Numbered from the stretch's first letter, positions 23,362-55,446 are shown. The stretch: 64,000 nt of DNA from Parcubacteria group bacterium M6-OD1-3 (GCA_003056165.1 LSNR01000002.1:2726-66725); one strand, 5' to 3'. Numbers and translations: made by a program. The notes: generated from the sequence alone by a model not told the origin.

Positions 23362-23545
23362 TCTTTTGTATAAAGTAAATCCACAATCTTTTGTGGTTCC
23401 CCTCTTTAATTAAAAACCGAAGTTTTTAATATGAATGCTTGTATTCAGAGTCGTATTCGTTTGGTATTTCGCCGAGGCGAAATAACCGACCTTATAGATT
23501 CATCCCATTGCTATAAGCAATAGGAGTACACCTTAACTCCCTAGA

Positions 23546-25645
<2,100 letters not shown>

Positions 25646-26134
25646 AAATTGAGTAATTTTCCCATATTAGAAGTTTTCAGAACATCCTAGTAAGGATCCC
25701 TGTCCGCCTCTGGAGGAAAACTCTCAATAAAATGAGCAAAAAAAATAAATTTAATGCCACATTGAGATTTATTAAAATCTTAAAGATTTTAATTATCTAA
25801 AGAAAATAGAAAACTATTTTCAAAAATTTGAAACTATAACTCTGAAATAAACATTGATTAATATTTTAAAAAAATACTAATCTTCAGGGAACCACAAAAA
25901 ATAATGATTTTACTACTACCTAATCAATATCTGTTTTAGATATAAAAATATAACTAAAACTGATTTTTTATGATTCTGTCCAAATTTCTAACCGTCAAAA
26001 ATTAGAAAATTTGGAACTATTTATCCAGACACTAAATTTGGTGTCGGATTCTTGTCAAACTGCTGTCATTAACTGCAAATTGATATGGAGAAAAATATAT
26101 CGCTGTAAAAATTTCTCCAGATTATCTGAAGTTA

Positions 26135-42284: not shown

Positions 42285-42602
42285 ATGACTACTAAATACA
42301 GAGGCTATCGACTTAAAACATATCTTAATTTTTTTCAAATTTTTATATTTGATATTACAAAGCTATGGAATAGAACAGGATTTATTCATTGTCATAACGC
42401 CAACTATTTAATGAGAATATTATTGGTAAAAAGCGGTTTTTTTAAAAATAGCGATATTCAAAATAAATGGACACTGGTGTGGTATTTTTCTCCACATCAA
42501 TATCTACAAATAAAATTAAATAATGGCAGTACTATAAATATTGATATTTGGGGAAGTGCTTATGGAGTTAAATTTGGTAATTATGCGCATGGCATTCATT
42601 AA
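42285..42602 (+). CDS. small transglutaminase-like (Cys/His papain-fold) domain protein
   Basis: 'FIHCHNANYLMRILLVKSG…H…INIDIW' pattern; start overlaps (TAATG) a 41-aa upstream ORF at 42160-42285. Confidence 0.35.
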   Translation: MTTKYRGYRLKTYLNFFQIFIFDITKLWNRTGFIHCHNANYLMRILLVKSGFFKNSDIQNKWTLVWYFSPHQYLQIKLNNGSTINIDIWGSAYGVKFGNYAHGIH

Positions 42603-42640
42603 AGTTTTTTCAATTCCGTCTCCAAAACCTTTTTTCCATC
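42593..42640. repeat. 48-bp perfect direct repeat, left copy (right copy 52773-52820)
   Basis: cattcattaaagttttttcaattccgtctccaaaaccttttttccatc read identically at both sites. Confidence 0.9.
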
Positions 42641-42685
42641 TTCAGTGAATAGAAATTTAATAAAAAAAACCAATTTAGTAAAAAA

Positions 42686-44425: not shown

Positions 44426-45817
44426 ATGGTTAAAAATAAAAATAAAAAAACCTCTTGGATTGACGACTATGCCAAAGCGGTAAAAGACTTTACTTATGAT
44501 CATGACCCGAATTCTCATCAACCTTTTGACGCCTTTTATTTCTATCCTTACTACTTTGATTTATGGTTGGATAAAATTTATCGCGCGATTGTTTTAATTA
44601 AAAGCAATGGAATTAACGATAAGGAAATTTTTTCCAAAATACCATCCCCTTCTTCTTTACGATTTGTATTTTACACAATCGTTAATATGACAGCTTATCT
44701 CAAATATCCAAAAACAAAATCTCGTGTTATTATTGATTTTTTCTTTAAATGTCTATCTAGTCAATCAAAAGATAATAATGTTTTTCATCAAGAAAGAATT
44801 TTGCTTAGAAGCAACGCAGAACTTAAAAAAATATTAACCGGCACCAAAAAAATAAAAACAAAATCCGAACAGCAATTAATTTCCAGATTGATCGGAACAT
44901 TATTGATGTATAATCACATTCTTTACAATGATTATTCAACTGACTATGGTTGCTGGATAGAGGGACCCTATAAAGTTGGTAATCGGATAATTTTAATTAG
45001 AAATTATCCGGATTTGTCGCCTAAAAATTTATGGCCGGAGTTGGAAAATCAATTCTTGAAAGACAAAAAGATTATAACCGTCTACAAAAATATTCCAATC
45101 AAAATGCAATATATGTCCAGCCACTTAGTTGCTAAAAATAATTATCAAAACAATCTTATCGCTTATCAAATATTCTCTAACGGCAAACCGCTCAATGATC
45201 TTTCCAGTTTGGACCAACTTATTAAAGACATTGCCAAGACAACCAGTCAACTGTACGAAAAAGTACGAAAAAAGAATATGACTGAAATTAAGGAACTTTT
45301 TTTACGACAGCAAGGATATGAACTAAAATGGCTATTTGATTTGGCTGGACTGGACTGGCGACCGGGCAACAAAAGACTTAAGCGAGCACAAAAAAGTAGA
45401 GTCCGCCGAAAAATTACTCCCGCCAGTAAACCGAAAACTCAAGAAGAATATGAATCACACATAGGAATTGATTTTTTGAGAAAATTATTTCAAAAAGATA
45501 TTACTCTTTATGGAAAAATAGCCAATAAAGGATTTGCTATCGGTAAAACGAAAATCGTTAAAACGCCAAAAGATTTTCGTTCATTTAAAATGGGTGATAT
45601 TTTGGTAACAACAATTACCAACCCCTCTTTTGTTGGCATCATTTCCAAAGCTGCCGCCATTATTACGGAACTAGGTGGCATCACTTCTCACCCGGCAATC
45701 ATTTCCCGAGAATTTAATTTGCCTTGTTTAGTTGGAGTCAAAAACGCCACCAAAAAATTAACTGATGGCGAATATATAGAAGTCAACGCTTACAAAGGGA
45801 AAGTCAAAGTTTTATAA
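44426..45817 (+). CDS. protein with unknown N-terminal domain (about 370 aa) and C-terminal PEP-utiliser mobile ('swivel') phosphohistidine domain
   Basis: 'GDILVTTITNPSFVGIISKAAAIITELGGITSHPAIISREFNLPCLVG'. Confidence 0.7.
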   Translation: MVKNKNKKTSWIDDYAKAVKDFTYDHDPNSHQPFDAFYFYPYYFDLWLDKIYRAIVLIKSNGINDKEIFSKIPSPSSLRFVFYTIVNMTAYLKYPKTKSRVIIDFFFKCLSSQSKDNNVFHQERILLRSNAELKKILTGTKKIKTKSEQQLISRLIGTLLMYNHILYNDYSTDYGCWIEGPYKVGNRIILIRNYPDLSPKNLWPELENQFLKDKKIITVYKNIPIKMQYMSSHLVAKNNYQNNLIAYQIFSNGKPLNDLSSLDQLIKDIAKTTSQLYEKVRKKNMTEIKELFLRQQGYELKWLFDLAGLDWRPGNKRLKRAQKSRVRRKITPASKPKTQEEYESHIGIDFLRKLFQKDITLYGKIANKGFAIGKTKIVKTPKDFRSFKMGDILVTTITNPSFVGIISKAAAIITELGGITSHPAIISREFNLPCLVGVKNATKKLTDGEYIEVNAYKGKVKVL

Positions 45818-46659: not shown

Positions 46660-47823
46660 CTATATAGTTTTTAAATCAAAATCAGTCAAATCAGGTGTCA
46701 TTACTTTTGCTTTTAATTCATCCGGCAAATACCAAACAAAGAAATAAAATGTTCCTGCATGTCCTGTTGGCTCGTCAATAAATTTAATCCCTTGCTTCTT
46801 TAATAATTTTTTCATTTTAACTTGAATTTCGCCGAGCCAGAGCGGAAGTAATACCGGGTCAATCATTCCCATCACATCTTTATACATTGCCAAGTTTTTT
46901 ACTTGCTCATAAGATAAAACGAATAATTCATATTCTTTTTTATTAAGTTTTTTCTTTGCTTCAAACTTTATTCTTCTTATTTTTTTCTTCATCAAAGCAT
47001 GTCTTTCTATCAACTTTTTGTTTCCCTTCCTAAACTCAACCGCATGAGTTAAAGCGTTATAAATAAGAGTTCTGTCACCACCTCGCATTTTAGTTTGCTC
47101 TATGGGAGTAAGAAGTAGCTTCTCTTTTAATACTTTAAAATCCTTTCGTTGAATAATATTATAAACTTTATCCCAAATCAAATTTATTTTCTTTTCATTT
47201 TTATCGACATTCTCATCTATCAAAATAATCGCTCTATTTAATAATTTTTTTATTTCAGGATCCTTAGATAAAATTTCTAAAATCTTTTGTCCGCCAAAAG
47301 AATCCAATAAATACAAGTCTGCATAATCTGTTTGTATTAAATCTCGTTGCAAAGAAGAAATCTTTTCCTCAAAATCTTCTGCGTCATTTCCAACATCAAC
47401 AATTTTGTATATAAGTCTTTTTAAATTGCTTATGAAAAACTCATGTAAAGGTCCATCAGAAAATAAATAATTAACTATCCAAAAACGATAGCAAATTAAT
47501 TTATTAAACCTTTGGTCTATACTAACTAAAAATTCCAGATCATTTTTATCACCGTTACCATAGTCTTTTTTGATTTTTGCAAAACCAACAAGTAATTCTT
47601 TTTGCGCCCAATCACCATATTTTCTAAATTTTTTTGGATTGTCAAAAACATTCTTAACAACACTTTCGTAATAAGAAATTATTGGAGGAAATTTATATGG
47701 ATAAAAACGCAAAAAACCTTCCAAATCGTTTGAAAGTGTTTGTGGAAATTTTAAGTATTTCTTATCAATCTTCATAAGTATAAATATTACCATTATCCCC
47801 ATCCAAAATAACTTTCTGTCCAT
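46660..47823 (-). CDS. hypothetical protein; possible paralogue of the N-terminal domain of 44426-45817 (shared F-x-F-YPY-x-F motif); start uncertain (overlaps upstream gene; alternative ATG at 47775)
   Basis: ORF track; similarity by eye only. Confidence 0.5.
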   Translation of the reverse strand: MDRKLFWMGIMVIFILMKIDKKYLKFPQTLSNDLEGFLRFYPYKFPPIISYYESVVKNVFDNPKKFRKYGDWAQKELLVGFAKIKKDYGNGDKNDLEFLVSIDQRFNKLICYRFWIVNYLFSDGPLHEFFISNLKRLIYKIVDVGNDAEDFEEKISSLQRDLIQTDYADLYLLDSFGGQKILEILSKDPEIKKLLNRAIILIDENVDKNEKKINLIWDKVYNIIQRKDFKVLKEKLLLTPIEQTKMRGGDRTLIYNALTHAVEFRKGNKKLIERHALMKKKIRRIKFEAKKKLNKKEYELFVLSYEQVKNLAMYKDVMGMIDPVLLPLWLGEIQVKMKKLLKKQGIKFIDEPTGHAGTFYFFVWYLPDELKAKVMTPDLTDFDLKTI

Positions 47824-49045
47824 CTTTTAAAACAATTGTTGCATTTTGAGTCCCAACTACGGCGGGAATATTAAATTCCCTTGACATAATGGCCGCATGG
47901 CACAAACTTCCTCCCAAGTCAGTGATAATTCCTTTAGATCTTTTTATTCCCAGTAAAAAAGGAGGTCTGGTCATCTTGGTAACAAGAATATCGCCTCTTT
48001 TTATTTTTGCCAATTCTTTACTCAAGCTTCCTGACATATTCATATCAATAATTCGAACAACACCGCTAACTTTTCCTCCTGAGGCTGAATACCCTGCCAA
48101 AACTCTTCTTGGCTTTCTTTCAAATTTCTTAAAATATATTCTCATTGCTTTTTCCAACGCCTGATATTCTATTGAAGATTGCAACCAACCTTTCTTATCG
48201 TGAGTAATTGGAATTCCTTCTATGTGCAGTTCTCCTATTATTTGCCGAATATCTTGATTTGGAGTAAGTCCAGTTTTATCATAGGTAGTCACAAGTCTTC
48301 CTCGTCTAAATGTGCTAAAACCATAATAACTTTTATTTAACCCAACCAATTGATACCCCCACCAACCAACGGCTTTACCTCCCTTAAATTTAATATTTAT
48401 TTTATTTTTCTTATCTTCAAGCAGCGTCGACTCGTAAGACTTACAATGACTTTTGTTAAAAATAATATCCACTTCCTTGTTGTTTATAAAAGGACCAAAC
48501 CTTGCTCCAAATTCAGTATTGATATTTTGCAATAATTTATCAGAAAATTTTACCTTTAGCTTTTTGATCACAACCACCGTGCCACTTGTTTTTTTATTTA
48601 CACCATTTTCAATATAAAATGGATATTCATTCCAATCTCCATTCTTCAACCAATCATCTTCACTGTATTTAATAATATATCTTTTATTAGAATTAATTTG
48701 AGTTGTATTTAATTCAAAAACCTTACCCAAAAATGATGTAGCTGTTTTTAATCCTAAGCCAAATTCTCCAAGTTTATTTTTCTTACTGGAAAATCCAAGT
48801 CTAATTGCTCTAGCGGACTCAATTTCACTCATTCCTCTTCCATTATCTATCACCTCAATTTTTTGAGGAGTTATGTTTATTTTTACTATCAATTTTTTAT
48901 TCGGTAAACGGGCGTCAATTGCATTATCAATAAGTTCAGATAAAGCTTCTTGAATAGAATATCCGGTCTGACTTATTTTTGTCAAAATACTCCTATGTGG
49001 AGTTATCTCAATAAACTTTTTCTCTATTTTTTTCGCCTTTTTCAT
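47765..49045 (-). CDS. GHKL (Bergerat-fold) ATPase fused to C-terminal PEP-utiliser swivel phosphohistidine domain
   Basis: N-box 'ELIDNAIDA', G1 'DNGRGM', G2 'GEFGLGLKTA'; C-terminus 'GDILVTKMTRPPFLLGIKRSKGIITDLGGSLCHAAIMSREFNIPAVVG'. Confidence 0.75.
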   Translation of the reverse strand: MKKAKKIEKKFIEITPHRSILTKISQTGYSIQEALSELIDNAIDARLPNKKLIVKINITPQKIEVIDNGRGMSEIESARAIRLGFSSKKNKLGEFGLGLKTATSFLGKVFELNTTQINSNKRYIIKYSEDDWLKNGDWNEYPFYIENGVNKKTSGTVVVIKKLKVKFSDKLLQNINTEFGARFGPFINNKEVDIIFNKSHCKSYESTLLEDKKNKINIKFKGGKAVGWWGYQLVGLNKSYYGFSTFRRGRLVTTYDKTGLTPNQDIRQIIGELHIEGIPITHDKKGWLQSSIEYQALEKAMRIYFKKFERKPRRVLAGYSASGGKVSGVVRIIDMNMSGSLSKELAKIKRGDILVTKMTRPPFLLGIKRSKGIITDLGGSLCHAAIMSREFNIPAVVGTQNATIVLKDGQKVILDGDNGNIYTYED

Positions 49046-49334
49046 TCCAAAATATTTTAAATTTTAAGTAATTTCAAAAATTCTACCATTAATTTCTATT
49101 ATTAACATATCTTTTTTATTATTCTCAGTCAAGTATCTGTACACGGTGTGTTTCATCTTATTTAGTATTATCATTGTCATGTTAATTACATTTAAAAATG
49201 TCATACCATTTATCAAATAGAAATGTCATGCTTTGAAAAATTTATTGATTTTTCAAATTTTAAAAAGTGGTCAAATTATGCACGTGCATAATTTGACCAC
49301 GGTCGAAAATTTATTTAATTTCTTTTGAAAAGTA

Positions 49335-51059
49335 TTATTTTGCTTTCTCCAAAATCCTCACAACGCCATTATCCGCATCAACTTCAACCAAATCACCGTC
49401 TTCCAAAACTTGTGTGGCAATTTTTGTTCCGATGATACACGGTTTTTTTAATTCACGAGCCACAATGGCAGCGTGACTTGTGATTCCTCCTTCATCTGTA
49501 ATAATTGCTTTAGCTTTTCTCATTAAGGGCATAAATTCTGGTCTTGTCATAGATGTAACTAAAATATCCCCTTTTTTGAATTTATTAAATTCTGAAAGTC
49601 TTAACACTGTTTTTACTTTACCTTCAATATCTCCTTTATATGCAACTTGCCCCATAAGCGATTCTTCGTCTCTTTTACAAGATTTAATATATTTTTCTTC
49701 CATTTTTTTCTTTATATCTTCAAAATTCTTATATTCAAATTCTGTAGAACCATCATAATTATGCAGAAATAAAACCCCTTCTTGTCTACTAATAATCTCC
49801 TCTTTTATTTTCTCTAAATAGTTTTTTCCTTTCAAAAACTCCTCAAAGGCACAATAATAAATTAATTCATTATTTAATCCAATTTCTCTAAAAAATCTTT
49901 CCCCAACTTTAAAGTTGATTACAATTCCCTTTCCCATAACATCTTTTTTCTTATCTCTTAAAACAAGAATTGTTTGTATATAATCGACTAATTGTTTTTC
50001 TTCTTTGTTTAATGAATCTCTCCAATTCTTAAAAGATTCTTTTGTTTCTTTGTATTCCAATTCTTCTTTTTTAAGTTCTTTAGATGCCATCTTATGATTC
50101 CTTAAGTATTCTGAGTAATCTTTCTTTATATTTTCTTCCATGTCTTTTATTGATTTTATTTCTATATATCCAGAGTAAGCATATTGCATCTCTTCAGCCA
50201 TATCCTTTACGTTTCTTAAATTTAATATTAAGTTTAGGATTTTTTTATGCCTTCTTTTATCAAAAGAATCCTCTGTTGGTATAATTGCTTTATCCCAGAC
50301 ATTTTCAACAACTTCAGGCTTTAAATCTAAATTGTGTTTATTAATAAATTCAAAGACAAGTTCCTTATCAAATTGTGTTGAGAACCATGCCGTGCAATTA
50401 TATTCCCTTACTAAACTAATTAGTCTTTCTAATTTTTTAATAATTTCTTCTTCTTTATAAGATTCTATATTTTTGTAAGACAAATCAAAATAAATTCCAT
50501 TTATCTCCTCCTCTAAAGTCTCTAAATATGAGATAGTTTTAGATAGTATTTTGTTATCTCTCATATACTTTACAAAAAAGTTTTCTGAAATCATATTATA
50601 CCTAGTTTCAGACATCAAAACAAAAGCTTTACCTTTTTTCATTGCTATAAGAAATTTTATATTTAAATCTTTAACTTTTCTGCCGAAATTAGGGGTAAAT
50701 CCTCCTGCTCCTGCAGCTAAAATTGAAACAGGAACTAAAGGATAAAAAACATCTCTTTCAAATCCTTTCATAAATTTACCTAAAAGTGTCTTGTGTTTTT
50801 GGATTATGCCACTAAGAGTCGTTATCGGTCTACTTTGCGTGATATAAAATTTTCCATTTTCTTGAGCCCATTCTATATCCTGCGGAAGTCCGTAATGGTC
50901 TTCTATTTTTTTAACAAGTTTCGCCAATTCTAAAATCTCTTTATCTGATAAAACTTGCTCTTGACCTTTTTCACCCAACTTCAACCACTCATTACCACCA
51001 CCATCTTTACGATAAAGTCCCCTGTCCTGCTCACTAATATTTTTTTCTAAAATTTTCAT
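49335..51059 (-). CDS. C-terminal fragment of a PEP-synthase / rifampin-phosphotransferase-like protein (end of ATP-grasp, central domain, swivel His domain)
   Basis: 'PQDIEWAQENGKFYITQSRPITTL' (end of PPDK_N) and 'GDILVTSMTRPEFMPLMRKAKAIITDEGGITSHAAIVARELKKPCIIG'. Confidence 0.75.
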   Translation of the reverse strand: MKILEKNISEQDRGLYRKDGGGNEWLKLGEKGQEQVLSDKEILELAKLVKKIEDHYGLPQDIEWAQENGKFYITQSRPITTLSGIIQKHKTLLGKFMKGFERDVFYPLVPVSILAAGAGGFTPNFGRKVKDLNIKFLIAMKKGKAFVLMSETRYNMISENFFVKYMRDNKILSKTISYLETLEEEINGIYFDLSYKNIESYKEEEIIKKLERLISLVREYNCTAWFSTQFDKELVFEFINKHNLDLKPEVVENVWDKAIIPTEDSFDKRRHKKILNLILNLRNVKDMAEEMQYAYSGYIEIKSIKDMEENIKKDYSEYLRNHKMASKELKKEELEYKETKESFKNWRDSLNKEEKQLVDYIQTILVLRDKKKDVMGKGIVINFKVGERFFREIGLNNELIYYCAFEEFLKGKNYLEKIKEEIISRQEGVLFLHNYDGSTEFEYKNFEDIKKKMEEKYIKSCKRDEESLMGQVAYKGDIEGKVKTVLRLSEFNKFKKGDILVTSMTRPEFMPLMRKAKAIITDEGGITSHAAIVARELKKPCIIGTKIATQVLEDGDLVEVDADNGVVRILEKAK

Positions 51060-51061
51060 AA

Positions 51062-52054
51062 TTATTTCTTTAACAACAACAAAAGCAAGCCGACAATTCG
51101 GTCTTTGTCTTTTGGTTTTGATTCTACTACCAAAAGAGTGATAGCAGTCAATGCTTCTGGAGTAATTTTATGTCTAAACTTTATGCCAACTTTTTGCAAA
51201 AACCAAATAAAAGCAAACGCTCCTGTTCGTTTGTTACCGTCGGTGAATGGATGATTTTTAACTACAAAATATAATAAGTGAATTGCTTTTTCTTCTACGG
51301 TTAAATAAACATCTTGACCAAAAACTGCCTGCAAAACATTTCCTAAAATTCCCTCTAAAGTTTTTTGTTTTTTCTCTTGGGCAAATAATTCTGTTGCTTG
51401 TTTTTTCTTAATTAGTTCTTTTTTGAATTTTGCCACTGCTTCATATAATTCATCAGCTTGAATTTTCACTTTCTTTTTAGTGCTTCCTTTAATCGGAAAT
51501 TTATCTTCATCATAAGATTCTAAAGATAACCACGCCCCGGAAAAAGATTTTATCAATTCTAAAATATCAGCAGTTTTTACTGCATTATTTTCGGGTAATA
51601 ATTTTTTGACATCATCAACTGCTTTGATGAATTTATCGTAATTTTTCCCGATGATTTCCGGATTCATATTATAACCTTGATAAATATATTGCCTTAATAT
51701 TCTATTTGACCATTTTCTAAATTTTACGGCTTGAGCTGAATTAGTACGATAACCAACTGCTAAAATAATATCCAAATTATAGAATTCAACTTGTCGTTTT
51801 ATTTCCCTTTTTCCCTCTTTTTGAACTTGTGCAAAAATTGCACTAGTTGAATTTTTATCAACCTCCTTATCTTTAAAAATATTTTTAATATGCTTAGTTG
51901 TCACAGAACGCTCTATTCCAAAAACCTCCGCAATTTGTTTTTGCGTCGCCCAAATAGTTTCATTACCAAAATCACCCCGTAATTCAATTCCGCCGTTTTT
52001 TGCTTGATAAATTACCAAGTTTTTATTTAATTTTACAATCTTTTTCTGAACCAT
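51062..52054 (-). CDS. Fic/Doc-family protein with N-terminal RhuM-like domain; intact Doc-type motif HPFTDGNKRTGAFA
   Basis: ORF track; motifs read directly. Confidence 0.8.
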   Translation of the reverse strand: MVQKKIVKLNKNLVIYQAKNGGIELRGDFGNETIWATQKQIAEVFGIERSVTTKHIKNIFKDKEVDKNSTSAIFAQVQKEGKREIKRQVEFYNLDIILAVGYRTNSAQAVKFRKWSNRILRQYIYQGYNMNPEIIGKNYDKFIKAVDDVKKLLPENNAVKTADILELIKSFSGAWLSLESYDEDKFPIKGSTKKKVKIQADELYEAVAKFKKELIKKKQATELFAQEKKQKTLEGILGNVLQAVFGQDVYLTVEEKAIHLLYFVVKNHPFTDGNKRTGAFAFIWFLQKVGIKFRHKITPEALTAITLLVVESKPKDKDRIVGLLLLLLKK

Positions 52055-52080
52055 ATTATTAACTCACTTTAATTAACTTT

Positions 52081-52779
52081 TTATTTTTTACCAACAACAT
52101 AACTATCCGGTGTGATTTGTCCAGAGACAATAGATTCTCCCAAACCAAATCCTGCTTCAATTATTATTTGATTTCTATCTTCTGTTACTGGATGAACAGA
52201 AAAAGCAATGCCTGATTTTTCAGAATTTATCATTTTTTGGATTACTACTGCGACGGAAATTTTATCTTTATTTAATTTTTTTTCAAAACGATAAAAGATT
52301 GCTCTCGACGTAAATAGTGAAGCCCAGCATTTTTTAACATTTTTCAATAAGTCTTTTTCGGTTGTATTTAAAAAAGAATCTAATTGTCCTGCCCAAGCAT
52401 TTTCTTGTCCGTCTTCCGCTGTAGCTGAGCTACGCACTGCAACAAACTTGGCATTTAACTTTTTAAATTCTTTTTCAATTTCTTTCTTGATTGCTTCTGG
52501 AATTTTTGCTTTTAAAATCAAAGACCGGATATTTTTTGACGCTTTTTCAACACTTTGAAGCTTTTTGACATTTACTTTTTTCAACTCTTTTTGTATTTTT
52601 GAAGTTAGATTATTTTTTTCTAAAAATTCTTCAAAAGTTTTTGTTAAAATCACAAAACCGTCTGGAACTGGAATTCCCGCTTGTGTCATCTCACCAAGTG
52701 AAGCCCCTTTACCTCCAGCAATATGAGTGTCTTTTTTTGATAGTTGTTCAAATGATTTGGTAAACATATCTTCATTCAT
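52081..52779 (-). CDS. N-terminal fragment of the same PEP-synthase-like ATP-grasp (PPDK_N) protein
   Basis: 'GGKGASLGEMTQAGIPVPDGFVIL'; ends …DSYVVGKK, where E. coli PpsA continues …DEFYVHKPT…. Confidence 0.75.
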   Translation of the reverse strand: MNEDMFTKSFEQLSKKDTHIAGGKGASLGEMTQAGIPVPDGFVILTKTFEEFLEKNNLTSKIQKELKKVNVKKLQSVEKASKNIRSLILKAKIPEAIKKEIEKEFKKLNAKFVAVRSSATAEDGQENAWAGQLDSFLNTTEKDLLKNVKKCWASLFTSRAIFYRFEKKLNKDKISVAVVIQKMINSEKSGIAFSVHPVTEDRNQIIIEAGFGLGESIVSGQITPDSYVVGKK

Positions 52780-52820
52780 TAAAGTTTTTTCAATTCCGTC
52801 TCCAAAACCTTTTTTCCATC
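52773..52820. repeat. 48-bp perfect direct repeat, right copy
   Basis: See 42593-42640; here it spans the NUDIX stop / PEP-synthase-fragment start. Confidence 0.9.
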
Positions 52821-53264
52821 CTTATTAAACAAAAAATTACCTTCAAAGTTTTTACCAGATAATAAAAGTGGCAACCAATACTGATCATCAACCCACATTT
52901 TTTTATAAGGAATTTCACTATGTTCAAACCATCTAGGCAACATTTCTTCCGTTTCTTCCGGCTCACCAATTATATTATCGCTGACAATAGAGAAAAAATT
53001 TACTTCCAAAATTTCTTTTAATTTATTTTCAAAACGAAAATCTATTATACCTCTTTTTATAAGACTCTCTTTGCTTTTTATTTTGAGACAACTTTCTTCA
53101 AATAATTCTCGCTCTGCTGCCTCAAAAATATTTTCATTTTTTTCTACTTTACCGCCAAAACCATTCCATTTCCCCATCCCAAACCCTCTCTTTTTCATTC
53201 CCAAAAGAATTTTTTCATTATCATAAACTAAAATCAGTGTCAGTTTTTGTTTTTTCATTATCAT
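52779..53264 (-). CDS. NUDIX hydrolase
   Basis: Nudix box 'GGKVEKNENIFEAAERELFEESCL'. Confidence 0.8.
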   Translation of the reverse strand: MIMKKQKLTLILVYDNEKILLGMKKRGFGMGKWNGFGGKVEKNENIFEAAERELFEESCLKIKSKESLIKRGIIDFRFENKLKEILEVNFFSIVSDNIIGEPEETEEMLPRWFEHSEIPYKKMWVDDQYWLPLLLSGKNFEGNFLFNKDGKKVLETELKKL

Positions 53265-53282
53265 AATAATATGGAGGCCTAA

Positions 53283-53305
53283 TATGGAGGCCTTGCCTCC
53301 ATATT
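53283..53305. repeat. REP-like GC-rich hairpin atatggaggc-ctt-gcctccatat (half-copy at 53269-53280; further copies at 53780-53798 and 53991-54013)
   Basis: Read directly. Confidence 0.7.
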
Positions 53306-53308
53306 CAT

Positions 53309-54010
53309 CTATTCAAAACTATTTTTTAATATTTCTTTATTTTTTAAAATACCCCGTAGCTGTCTATTGGCAAACTGCTCATACTCTTTCTTATCCCTAG
53401 TGAAAGAATCTAAAATATATCCAGTTGTACAAAGATTAGTTTTCATATTTTTTATATATTCAGGAAGGCTGGTTCTATATTTATTATTTCTGCCACTTTC
53501 ATCTCTTTTAATTTTGTGGACTTTAAAATTTAAATTGACATATACTGATAATCTATTCAAATATTCTTGTGTGCCAATATGCTTAGCTTTAAATTTCCCT
53601 TGAAACAAAGATCCATTTCTTTTGTTTTTCTTATTAAAATACATAGTATAACCTGTTCCAATCTTTTGCATAAATTTAGAAATACCACCTTCAATATTTT
53701 GTCTCAAGATAAAATGAAAATGATTTGGCAACAAACAAAATGCCACTACTTCTACTAACATGGAGGCCTTGCCTCCATTCTTAATCTTTTTAGAATACTT
53801 GTATTGTGGGACACCACCTAGAGAGTTTTCTTGATTAAATAAATCAATAATTTGTAAAAATTTAAAAAAATCTTGGCTATCTTCAAAAATAACTCTTCTA
53901 TCTATACCTCTATTGTAAATATGATAAAATTCGTCTGTGCTAAATCTTATTTTTCTTATACTCATACTCAATTTTATATCATTTTCCCCATATGGAGGCA
54001 AGGCCTCCAT
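53309..54010 (-). CDS. REP-associated tyrosine transposase (RAYT, IS200/IS605-like HuH Y1)
   Basis: 'FYHIYNRGIDRRVIFED', HuH 'LLPNHFHFIL', 'YTMYFNKKNKRNGSLFQGKFK'. Confidence 0.75.
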   Translation of the reverse strand: MEALPPYGENDIKLSMSIRKIRFSTDEFYHIYNRGIDRRVIFEDSQDFFKFLQIIDLFNQENSLGGVPQYKYSKKIKNGGKASMLVEVVAFCLLPNHFHFILRQNIEGGISKFMQKIGTGYTMYFNKKNKRNGSLFQGKFKAKHIGTQEYLNRLSVYVNLNFKVHKIKRDESGRNNKYRTSLPEYIKNMKTNLCTTGYILDSFTRDKKEYEQFANRQLRGILKNKEILKNSFE

Positions 54011-54027
54011 ATAGTTCTTGCAACTAT

Positions 54028-55446
54028 TTATTTTATTCTTTCAAACAAAATTTCTTTTTTACCTGTTTCTAGTTGTTGTTTTATTTTAATTGAAGTTTCT
54101 GGCATAAATGATTCTAGAAGCTGAGCTATAAAATACAAATCTTCAACTAATTTTTCCATTACTTTCTCAAATTCTTTCTTACTACTTTTTGCTAGTTCCC
54201 ACGGCTTTGTTTCTTCAATGTATTTATTACTCTTCTGAACAAGATGACTCCAAATTCTTTCTAGCGCCTTATCAAACCATAAGCTTTCGATAAACATTTT
54301 ATTCCACTGTATTGGATCATATATTTTTCTTTCAATATTACTAAAATCAATATTTTCACTTAATTTCACAACTCGCGAAACCAAATTTCCCAAACCATTT
54401 GCTAGATCAGCATTATATTTTTCAACCATTCTTTCTATTGTAATATCAATATCTTCTCCGAAAGTTCCAGCTGAAAGTAAAAGATAGCGTGTACCATCTG
54501 TACCAAATTTCTCCAACATCTCATCAATACTAATCACATTGCCGATTGTTTTACTCATCTTTTTTCCGTCCGATAAAATATGTCCGTGCACAAAAAGCTG
54601 TTTTGGCAACTCAATTCCTAAGTGCATTAACATTATTGGCCAAATTGTAGCGTGAACCCGTAAAATATCTTTACCCAACATTTGAATATTCGCTGGCCAA
54701 AAATCTGGAATTTTATTTACATCACCATTCCACCCTAGTCCTGTTAAATAATTTAACAAAGCATCAAACCAAACGTAAGCCGTGTGCGTTTCGTCAAATG
54801 GCAACGGAATTCCCCAATTAACATTTTTTCGTGAAATAGATAAATCTTCCAACTCATTATTTTTTAGAAATGACAAGATTTCCTTTTTATATTTTTCTGG
54901 TCTAATTTTAAAGTCATCACTTTCAATTTTTTGAATCAATTCAGTTTGTCTTTCATCCATTTTCATCATATAGCTTTCTTCCTTCATCACTTCCGGTTCT
55001 ACATTATGATCCGGACATTTTCCATCCACTAAATCACTTTCGTTTTTAAATTGCTCACAACCAACGCAATATAATCCTTCATATTCTCCCTTATAAATCA
55101 CTCCTTTATCATATAAAGTTTGCAAAGAAACCTGAATTGCTTTTTTGTGTTCAGGATTTGTCGTTCGAATAAAATTATCATATTCAATATCTAATTCTTG
55201 CCAAAGTTTTTTAAAGTCATCTGAAACTTCATTTACCAATTCCTGGGGTTTTTTGCTTTCCTCTTTTGCTTTTTGTGCAATTTTTGCTCCATGTTCATCC
55301 ATTCCCGTTAAAAAGAAGGTTTTTGTTTTTTGTAATTTATAGAATCGTGCTAATGCATCAGTCGCGACAGTTGTATATGCATGCCCAATATGCGGTTGTG
55401 CGTTAGCATAATAAATTGGAGTTGTTATATAAAATTTATTTTTCAT
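54028..55446 (-). CDS. metG: methionyl-tRNA synthetase (short form)
   Basis: 'HIGH' in 'AQPHIGHAYT', 'KMSKT', Zn knuckle 'CVGCEQF…CPDH'. Confidence 0.9.
   Translation of the reverse strand: MKNKFYITTPIYYANAQPHIGHAYTTVATDALARFYKLQKTKTFFLTGMDEHGAKIAQKAKEESKKPQELVNEVSDDFKKLWQELDIEYDNFIRTTNPEHKKAIQVSLQTLYDKGVIYKGEYEGLYCVGCEQFKNESDLVDGKCPDHNVEPEVMKEESYMMKMDERQTELIQKIESDDFKIRPEKYKKEILSFLKNNELEDLSISRKNVNWGIPLPFDETHTAYVWFDALLNYLTGLGWNGDVNKIPDFWPANIQMLGKDILRVHATIWPIMLMHLGIELPKQLFVHGHILSDGKKMSKTIGNVISIDEMLEKFGTDGTRYLLLSAGTFGEDIDITIERMVEKYNADLANGLGNLVSRVVKLSENIDFSNIERKIYDPIQWNKMFIESLWFDKALERIWSHLVQKSNKYIEETKPWELAKSSKKEFEKVMEKLVEDLYFIAQLLESFMPETSIKIKQQLETGKKEILFERIK

Follow-up and report, generated by a model that had tools for sequence, protein, structure and literature searches.

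A RhuM-Doc gene as a probable passenger in a recurrent break of a two-piece, RPH-like dikinase gene of Patescibacteria

Presentation of the hypothesis

In the Parcubacteria group bacterium M6-OD1-3, a gene for a predicted dikinase that resembles rifampin phosphotransferase (RPH) is present as two open reading frames (ORFs), and between them lies a complete gene whose product joins a RhuM domain to a Doc-type Fic domain (RhuM-Doc). The locus is part of a stretch of 64 kb (LSNR01000002.1:2726-66725), which we call the window and whose coordinates are used below. We suggest, and consider fairly probable, that RhuM-Doc is a passenger in a pre-existing and recurrent gap of a two-piece, RPH-like dikinase, and that it is neither the cause of the split nor inactivating. 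We regard it as a passenger because the same break recurs in relatives with other cargo or with none, and because both halves of the dikinase are under strong purifying selection. We found no description of this split-dikinase/RhuM-Doc arrangement in the literature, of which our coverage is incomplete.

Domains were called with a Pfam scan and with NCBIfam and PADLOC models, RNA families were searched with Rfam, and the locus was scanned for terminators. Loci and contigs fetched for comparison carry labels from L001 to L173; fetched homologous proteins are labelled P0003 and so on.

All three ORFs lie on the minus strand, each in a different reading frame. The first (the N-half, 52779..52081) encodes 232 amino acids (aa) that end in ITPDSYVVGKK* and match the ATP-grasp domain PPDK_N of Pfam (3-224 of 328, expectation value E=2e-77). 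Its homologues have the consensus start MFTK, which matches a second ATG at 52767; the true start is therefore probably there, giving 228 aa as in the gene callers' version. A spacer of 26 nucleotides (nt; 52055..52080), without a terminator-like hairpin, leads from the stop codon of the N-half to the ATG of RhuM-Doc (52054..51062, 330 aa; Virulence_RhuM E=8e-22, Fic E=1.9e-12). Two nucleotides past the stop codon of RhuM-Doc, in the sequence TAA-TT-ATG, the remainder of the dikinase gene begins (the C-half, 51059..49335, 574 aa). It encodes the last quarter of the ATP-grasp domain (51059-50775; PPDK_N 228-319, E=1e-17), a middle, putative substrate-binding domain of about 365 aa (50774-49680) and a His-swivel domain (49679-49335; PEP-utilizers, PF00391, E=5e-27) with the motif GGITSHAAI.

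A first-pass annotation of this DNA had described the same layout, including the independent start and stop of the RhuM-Doc gene and the two-nucleotide junction, and both descriptions hold. It had further supposed that the C-half resumes a few residues further along the domain; in the alignment with homologues essentially nothing is missing. Where unsplit homologues read SYVVEKEPRKIIDKNI, the window has SYVVGKK* and then MKILEKNI, the lone change being from Pro to the start Met. NCBIfam models likewise place the end of the N-half at 229-231 (ranging to 243 across models) and the start of the C-half at 232-234.

Upstream of the N-half, a NUDIX hydrolase gene on the same strand (52779..53264) ends in a stop codon that overlaps the first possible ATG of the N-half by 1 nt, and the same order is found on L001 and L002; this NUDIX gene probably heads the operon to which the N-half belongs. 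An intrinsic-terminator-like hairpin (49267..49300, minus strand; a 15-bp stem with a T-run, also recorded as inverted repeat I2) stands 35 nt past the stop codon of the C-half and likely marks the end of the transcription unit. The order is then NUDIX, N-half, RhuM-Doc, C-half and terminator, with spacers of -1, 26 and 2 nt. Between the three ORFs, the terminator scan gave only three weak hits with 5-6 bp, none of them strong and all inside the RhuM-Doc ORF.

Evidence for a recurrent break

The ATP-grasp domain has about 315 residues and is cut at residue 232. In an AlphaFold2 model of the concatenated halves (predicted local distance difference test score, pLDDT, 86.7), the break at 232|233 falls between the strands 225-230 and 234-239, that is, in a beta-hairpin turn inside the domain. 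The nearest homologues of the N-half are mostly stand-alone ATP-grasp proteins of 313-320 aa. Among the 120 nearest, at least seven end right after SYVVxK(E) (P0242, P0249, P0254, P0286, P0299, P0318 and P0322). By distance, the proteins ending at the break belong to at least five lineages, and in each of these the nearest neighbours are unsplit.

To approach the break from its other side, we used the 95-aa C-side ATP-grasp part as the query of an exhaustive search through 1.8 billion cluster representatives (clusters at 50%). Of the 150 best, which were inspected, ten with lengths from 99 to 1245 aa begin with M(K/R)I(I/L)D exactly at the break, and two more begin within two residues of it. 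We take these as true starts and not as truncated gene calls, because unsplit proteins have Pro there. As a control, distant homologues on viral contigs were inspected: none of the 28 that span the site is split, and no close relatives of the N-half were found on such contigs. Judged from these comparisons of sequences, the break is an established and recurrent architecture in a subset of this protein family of Patescibacteria (candidate phyla radiation).

Nine further representatives of the C-side search (P0376, P0380, P0403, P0408, P0431, P0454, P0457, P0468 and P0476) begin at the invariant Met183 of the ATP-grasp domain, in the motif M[VI]xSE.SGIAFSVHP. Here, some 50 residues upstream of the first, the family may have another recurrent break; it may also be that genes were miscalled on truncated contigs.

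What fills the gap in relatives? Its contents were examined at about five loci. The nearest relative is L168, where the N-half is 79-82% and the C-side part 83-85% identical to the window. There the N-half ends in VVEKE* and is followed by an AAA_14-DUF4143 gene (PADLOC PDC-S01) with its own promoter-like region; we found nothing in the literature on DUF4143 and Fic genes embedded together. After this cargo come two alternative C-halves, which start at the break with MKITEKNISEQ and MKIIEKNISEQ and each have a middle and a swivel domain of their own. A single N-half for two C-halves makes sense only if the halves pair in trans.

L169, and likewise L170 and L171, has no gene in the gap. A structured spacer of 150 nt is followed there by a C-half of 585 aa. 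The spacer (L169, 6712-6860) contains two strong hairpins, folds better than shuffled controls (z=-3.2) and, in Rfam at E<=1, has no relevant match. It may be a cargo site left empty, a terminator-promoter pair or what remains of an element. In L172 the N-half is followed by a membrane ORF on the opposite strand, a distant RhuM-Doc (37% identical, PDC-S23) and an NYN gene, with no C-half seen before the contig ends; this RhuM-Doc surfaced only via the search with the N-half. In L173 the N-half is followed by an ORF of 274 aa to which no family was assigned.

Since the same break holds other genes, or none, in these relatives, the cargo turns over while the break persists. The first-pass annotation had proposed that a Fic cassette split the host gene. 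The presence of the same break elsewhere with different cargo or without any speaks against this, as do the ten cluster representatives that start exactly there. So does the genome of the nearest relative: the assembly of L168 contains a RhuM-Doc 72% identical to that of the window, and it lies not at the break but between an acetyltransferase gene and alaS (L012). The annotation had also named an observation that would overturn its view of a divided gene, namely that the two ORFs are ordinarily separate genes in this lineage. This is true of the nearest relative, though not of the family taken together.

One C-half of L168 (8126-8188) and the 99-aa P0382 carry, right after QSRPITTL, a remnant of the extreme C-terminus of the swivel domain (..DLVEVDADSGVVRILEK..). 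They resemble scars of modules lost or replaced when repeated swivel-coding ends recombined.

The host enzyme

Together, the halves span positions 3-319 of PF01326. A search with the concatenated halves found the uninterrupted counterparts that the first-pass annotation had advised looking for: homologues of 804-807 aa with 60-78% identity, one of them labelled Candidatus Andersenbacteria. The same search returned many homologues of 1100-1400 aa, in which a module of middle domain and swivel, in two or three tandem copies, comes after a single ATP-grasp domain. Inteins at the break were considered for these long homologues and rejected, since the sequences show tandem middle and swivel modules.

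The N+C model was compared with known structures by Foldseek. Its ATP-grasp domain superposes on the ATP-binding domain of RPH (5hv6_A) with a template modelling (TM) score of 0.92 and a root-mean-square deviation of 2.0 A. Over its full length the model aligns to rifampin phosphotransferase 5hv1 (E=5.5e-38), with a global TM score of only 0.39 that reflects domain orientation; this comparison covered the middle domain as part of the whole chain. The swivel histidine (His761 in the numbering of the N+C concatenation, His529 in that of the C-half) stands in an invariant column of the alignment.

The gene had at first been called PEP-synthase-like. No Pfam match to PEP-utilizers_C exists in the dikinase halves, the protein ending at the swivel domain, and because this domain is not found the enzyme is not a phosphoenolpyruvate (PEP) synthase. 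The rifamycin phosphotransferase equivalog NF041857 scores 212.8 and 133.5 bits with the two halves against a cutoff of 999, and the scores on the PEP-synthase side (TIGR01418, NF005057) are likewise far under their cutoffs. By domain content and by the model, then, the host enzyme is an RPH-like dikinase, composed of ATP-grasp, middle domain and C-terminal swivel, and is neither a PEP synthase nor an RPH orthologue.

The gene is a mosaic: its middle domain is 89% identical to that of the intact P0003, both ATP-grasp parts only 65-67%. The gene of the 804-aa P0003 adjoins genes for a tyrosine recombinase (Phage_integrase) and an HTH_17 protein and a contig end (L009, 6273-7761), which hints that in that genome the dikinase gene may travel on an integrative element.

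The probable passenger gene

The 993-nt insert in the window encodes a full-length member of a very large and well-conserved family. Its product matches the PADLOC model PDC-S23 (PDLC04965) with E=3.3e-105, residues 10-329 aligning to profile positions 4-324 of 327, and it has the Doc-type active-site motif HxFx(D/E)GN(G/K)R in the form HPFTDGNKR. The DOC_P1 model TIGR01550 gives 38.3 bits, just under its cutoff of 38.65. A literature search found no paper mentioning PDC-S23. The layout is not the classical one of phd-doc: the ORF upstream of RhuM-Doc, across the 26-nt spacer, is the dikinase N-half, and no Phd-type antitoxin gene is found there.

The closest relatives of RhuM-Doc in the candidate phyla radiation are wedged between housekeeping genes, the next ATG following 2-6 nt past their stop codon. 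Their neighbours are def and fmt (L090), an acetyltransferase gene and alaS (L010, L012), RidA and alaS (L088), and leuS and a yvcK-like gene (L011). Because the family adjoins such unrelated genes elsewhere, we see RhuM-Doc as a promiscuous passenger. In many of the relatives fetched, the gene shares 4 nt with its upstream neighbour and 8 nt with the downstream one; in the one overlapping case that was inspected (L089), the latter is HsdM-like. No copy linked to PPDK was found among the roughly 150 loci that the Fic protein retrieved, save on contigs of the same strain.

How such a cassette can enter a gene is seen in L012. A 46-nt direct repeat (41/46 matching) flanks RhuM-Doc there (684-760 and 1770-1830) and comprises the ribosome-binding region and the first 13 codons of alaS; of the two copies, the left one amounts to a stub of 13 alaS codons closed by TAG. 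This is direct evidence of an insertion into the coding region of alaS, after which a duplicated copy gave the gene its start back. An empty alaS site to set beside L012 was sought in the 64-kb window, but alaS is absent from it.

Neither a mobility gene nor a conserved terminal element accompanies the RhuM-Doc cassette. The flanks of the relatives' Doc genes, looked over by eye and unaligned, showed no conserved non-coding element. A target-site duplication or terminal repeat was sought at the cassette of the window, and one candidate, a match of 21/23 between the end of the N-half TTATGTTGTTGGTAAAAAATAA and the end of the Doc ORF TTTTGTTGTTGTTAAAGAAATAA, was rejected: its score of 29 is not significant, control loci giving local scores of 15-26, and the C-terminus LLLKK* is native to the Doc family.

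In L013 (3793-3915), an ORF of 40 aa with the N-terminus of LepA/EF4 (GTP_EFTU) follows integrase, RhuM-Doc and ORF6N genes. It is possibly a housekeeping gene truncated at another insertion site of the cassette family.

Selection on the halves and alternative explanations

The first-pass annotation had offered two fates for the divided gene: the two polypeptides reassemble, or the gene has been inactivated. The first is favoured by the comparison with L168, in which the N-half has a ratio of nonsynonymous to synonymous substitution rates (dN/dS) of 0.09 and the C-side ATP-grasp part one of 0.05-0.08, at a dS of about 1.6 that is near saturation. All invariant residues are present in the window protein, the swivel His included. 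At columns conserved in at least 90% of sequences the window deviates in 3/111, 2/29, 1/17 and 1/38 cases, inside the range of 37 intact homologues. Contigs of the same species differ in the split gene by seven synonymous and one nonsynonymous single-nucleotide polymorphisms.

Several observations, besides the near-saturated dS, weigh against a functional two-piece enzyme. In the sister strains L001 and L003 (99.8% nt identity) the C-half has only 97 aa, comprises the ATP-grasp part and ends just past QSRPITTL; compared with the window (50813-49075), the middle and swivel domains are gone (L001, 7242-7440). The GHKL-swivel gene that follows in the window is cut to its first 26 codons in these strains, and radical-SAM and IS1595 transposase genes come after it. 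As L001 and L003 have lost these parts, the locus is variable and, in part of the population, dispensable or decaying. Four clustered synonymous differences at the conserved QSRPITTL codons just before this breakpoint suggest recombination at a module boundary. No C-half was found within 5 kb in L173, so that some N-halves may be relics. The break shared by the window and L168 could have arisen independently, as it recurs in the family, and if it did, the low dN/dS partly reflects time spent as an intact gene. Finally, the break lies inside a domain, unlike the cuts in characterised two-component dikinases, which are at domain boundaries.

A rival view is that RhuM-Doc, or some earlier cargo, recently inactivated an intact gene and that the fragments are young pseudogenes that have not yet decayed. 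The existence of intact homologues of 804-807 aa, the sister strains already without middle and swivel, and the apparent lack of a C-half in L173 would fit, as would the position of the locus in a variable 10-kb segment that has direct repeats on either side and adjoins an IS200-like gene. Yet about 7% of the cluster representatives share the break with an intact start Met, long multi-module proteins among them. The nearest split relative is at a dS of about 1.6, and still dN/dS stays under 0.1 for each half; frameshifts and stops are absent, conserved columns show no surplus of changes, and the duplicated C-halves of L168 would be pointless unless they pair with the single N-half. We therefore consider a recent disruption unlikely.

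Alternatively, the dikinase and the gene in its gap could form one system, for instance an anti-phage module in which the dikinase controls a cargo toxin or is guarded by it, as with PrrC or RhuM-Doc in type I restriction-modification operons. Cargo genes do match PADLOC defence candidates (PDC-S23 twice, in the gap of the window and downstream of the N-half in L172; PDC-S01 once; NYN once, in L172), RhuM-Doc genes embedded in restriction-modification operons are known (PMC3710099), the neighbourhood encodes the fusion of a swivel domain with a MORC-like GHKL ATPase, which as a domain type is met with in defence contexts, and the locus varies between strains. However, the cargo is not constant and is absent in L169, and the same RhuM-Doc family stands beside unrelated housekeeping genes in other genomes of the candidate phyla radiation. 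The dikinase parts match no PADLOC model, and the GHKL domain has only a weak MzaB-like hit; the cargo families come from only about five loci. A functional partnership thus seems to us rather improbable.

The intervening gene might also be removed at the level of RNA or protein, by an intron, an intein or ribosomal bypass, to give a single-chain enzyme. Nothing but the clean junction recommends this. Rfam, applied to 48800-54200 at E<=1, gave only one chance miRNA hit and no match for an intron. The three ORFs are in three frames with stops, no intein blocks or extra junction residues are present (the N-half ends 2-3 residues past the strand 225-230, and the C-half continues with Met and the homologous KILEKNI), and the insert encodes a conserved full-length protein. 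The first-pass annotation had already ruled out an intein, and we agree; removal of any such kind is very improbable. A chimeric or faulty assembly, conceivable since the window probably comes from a metagenome-assembled genome, is effectively refuted: the identical Fic protein is found on eight contigs from NCBI and Logan assemblies of different runs (99.8-100% nt identity) that independently show the same junctions, and the N-half is directly upstream of Fic on 7/7 contigs reaching that far, from at least six samples.

If RhuM-Doc is indeed a passenger in a two-piece dikinase, we infer the following. The gap between the halves would act as a slot for different passenger genes in different genomes. 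In the window, NUDIX, N-half, RhuM-Doc and C-half would be co-transcribed, and the C-half would be translated by termination and reinitiation at TAA-TT-ATG after the Doc stop codon. The two halves may then reassemble non-covalently, by beta-sheet complementation, into an active ATP-grasp domain, which would phosphorylate the swivel His (residue 529 of the C-half); from there the phosphate would pass to a substrate bound by the middle domain. RhuM-Doc itself would be a hitch-hiking toxin or defence gene that borrows the expression signals of the operon.

The surrounding segment

Two more swivel domains are encoded close by; both were recovered by Pfam (PEP-utilizers) and by tblastn with the swivel segment. 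One belongs to the fusion with the MORC-like GHKL ATPase (47765..49045, minus strand; HATPase_c_3, Morc6_S5), an unusual architecture. The other is at the C-terminus (residues 388-458) of a 463-aa protein with an uncharacterised N-terminal region of about 380 aa (44426..45817, plus strand), the third swivel carrier of the island. Their presence suggests that the ATP-grasp may serve several phospho-acceptor proteins, the GHKL-swivel protein being a possible additional partner. One may go further and speculate that the codon of the hairpin turn is a specific, reused integration site for defence or toxin genes, spread by recombination on conserved flanks, and that the split dikinase together with its swivel partners (GHKL-swivel and the 463-aa protein) is a modular phospho-relay defence system in which one N-half serves interchangeable C-halves. 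We hold this combination to be doubtful.

The end of the GHKL-swivel gene is overlapped by 59 nt by an ORF of 387 aa (46660-47823, minus strand) without Pfam, NCBIfam or PADLOC match, the real start of which is probably further downstream. The variable segment is bracketed by a direct repeat, D1. Its left copy (52773..52839, 67 nt) consists of the 3' end of NUDIX and the first 7 nt of the N-half, and its right copy (42593..42659) is 90% identical, with the first 48 nt exact. The 10.2 kb between them contain all dikinase parts, two histidine-phosphatase genes and a TrmB-like regulator; D1 could mark the boundary of an island or be a substrate for deletion of the whole segment.

Beyond NUDIX, an IS200/RAYT-like Y1 transposase gene (54010..53309, within the region 53282-54012) has perfect 23-nt inverted repeats ATATGGAGGCCTTGCCTCCATAT on either side, and a third copy of this hairpin lies within its ORF (53755-53778). 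Farther away, the 16S rRNA gene (23545-25647, minus strand) is 2103 nt long against a model of 1533 nt and so has about 570 nt inserted; an ORF of 135 aa (25062-25469, plus strand) lies inside its span. Inserted sequence in 16S rRNA genes has been described for candidate phyla radiation bacteria.

Implications of the hypothesis

We know other examples of enzymes made in pieces. In the two-component dikinases HpeHI, CreHI and PpsAB, which are active enzymes, the ATP-grasp is on a separate subunit (PMC12167813). They and RPH (PMC4844700) share with the dikinase of the window an ATP-grasp, a substrate-binding domain and a phosphate-carrying His-swivel. The ATP-grasp subunit of HpeHI works in trans, and the stand-alone homologues of 313-320 aa from the candidate phyla radiation fit this type. 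The dikinase of the window differs in that its cut is inside the ATP-grasp, near residue 232, so that no subunit has the whole domain, and in that an unrelated gene occupies the cut.

A closer parallel to the gene arrangement is phage Aeh1, in which the homing endonuclease gene mobE splits nrdA and the halves reassemble into an active enzyme without splicing (PMC3045599). There too, a free-standing gene has been inserted and leaves the enzyme gene as two ORFs. In the window, however, the cargo has only RhuM and Fic domains and no recognisable endonuclease domain (relatives have AAA_14-DUF4143, NYN or an unassigned ORF), the halves have no insertion-derived tails, the host is a bacterium and the break is found again with other cargo. 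Fractured genes (PMC2677866), in which a free-standing endonuclease lies between halves carrying split inteins, are similar in that the arrangement recurs across metagenomic loci. Unlike them, the window has no split-intein sequence at the junction, the halves abut with homologous residues and the cargo is no endonuclease.

As for the passenger, RhuM-Doc and Doc genes embedded in type I restriction-modification operons (PMC3710099) are of the same family and architecture and are placed just as tightly inside the operon of another system. The host operon in the window is that of a dikinase instead, and the site is a break in a coding region, not a space between complete genes. What sets the present case apart from all these parallels is the break inside the ATP-grasp, the lack of intein sequences, and cargo that is toxin-like or a defence candidate in place of an endonuclease.

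Whatever the cargo does, there is a practical consequence for annotation: PPDK_N fragments of about 230 aa, and ORFs that start with M(K/R)I(I/L)D, should not be called pseudogenes automatically. RhuM-Doc genes of the candidate phyla radiation are wedged in the operons of others, even in a break within a coding region, and this bears on how such genes persist and move without a mobility gene of their own. If the halves do assemble, we would have a natural and evolutionarily stable split inside an ATP-grasp domain, and a dikinase could be built from a shared N-half and exchangeable C-halves. Such an arrangement would offer a design for the engineering of split enzymes and would let us see how very small genomes diversify their modular enzymes.

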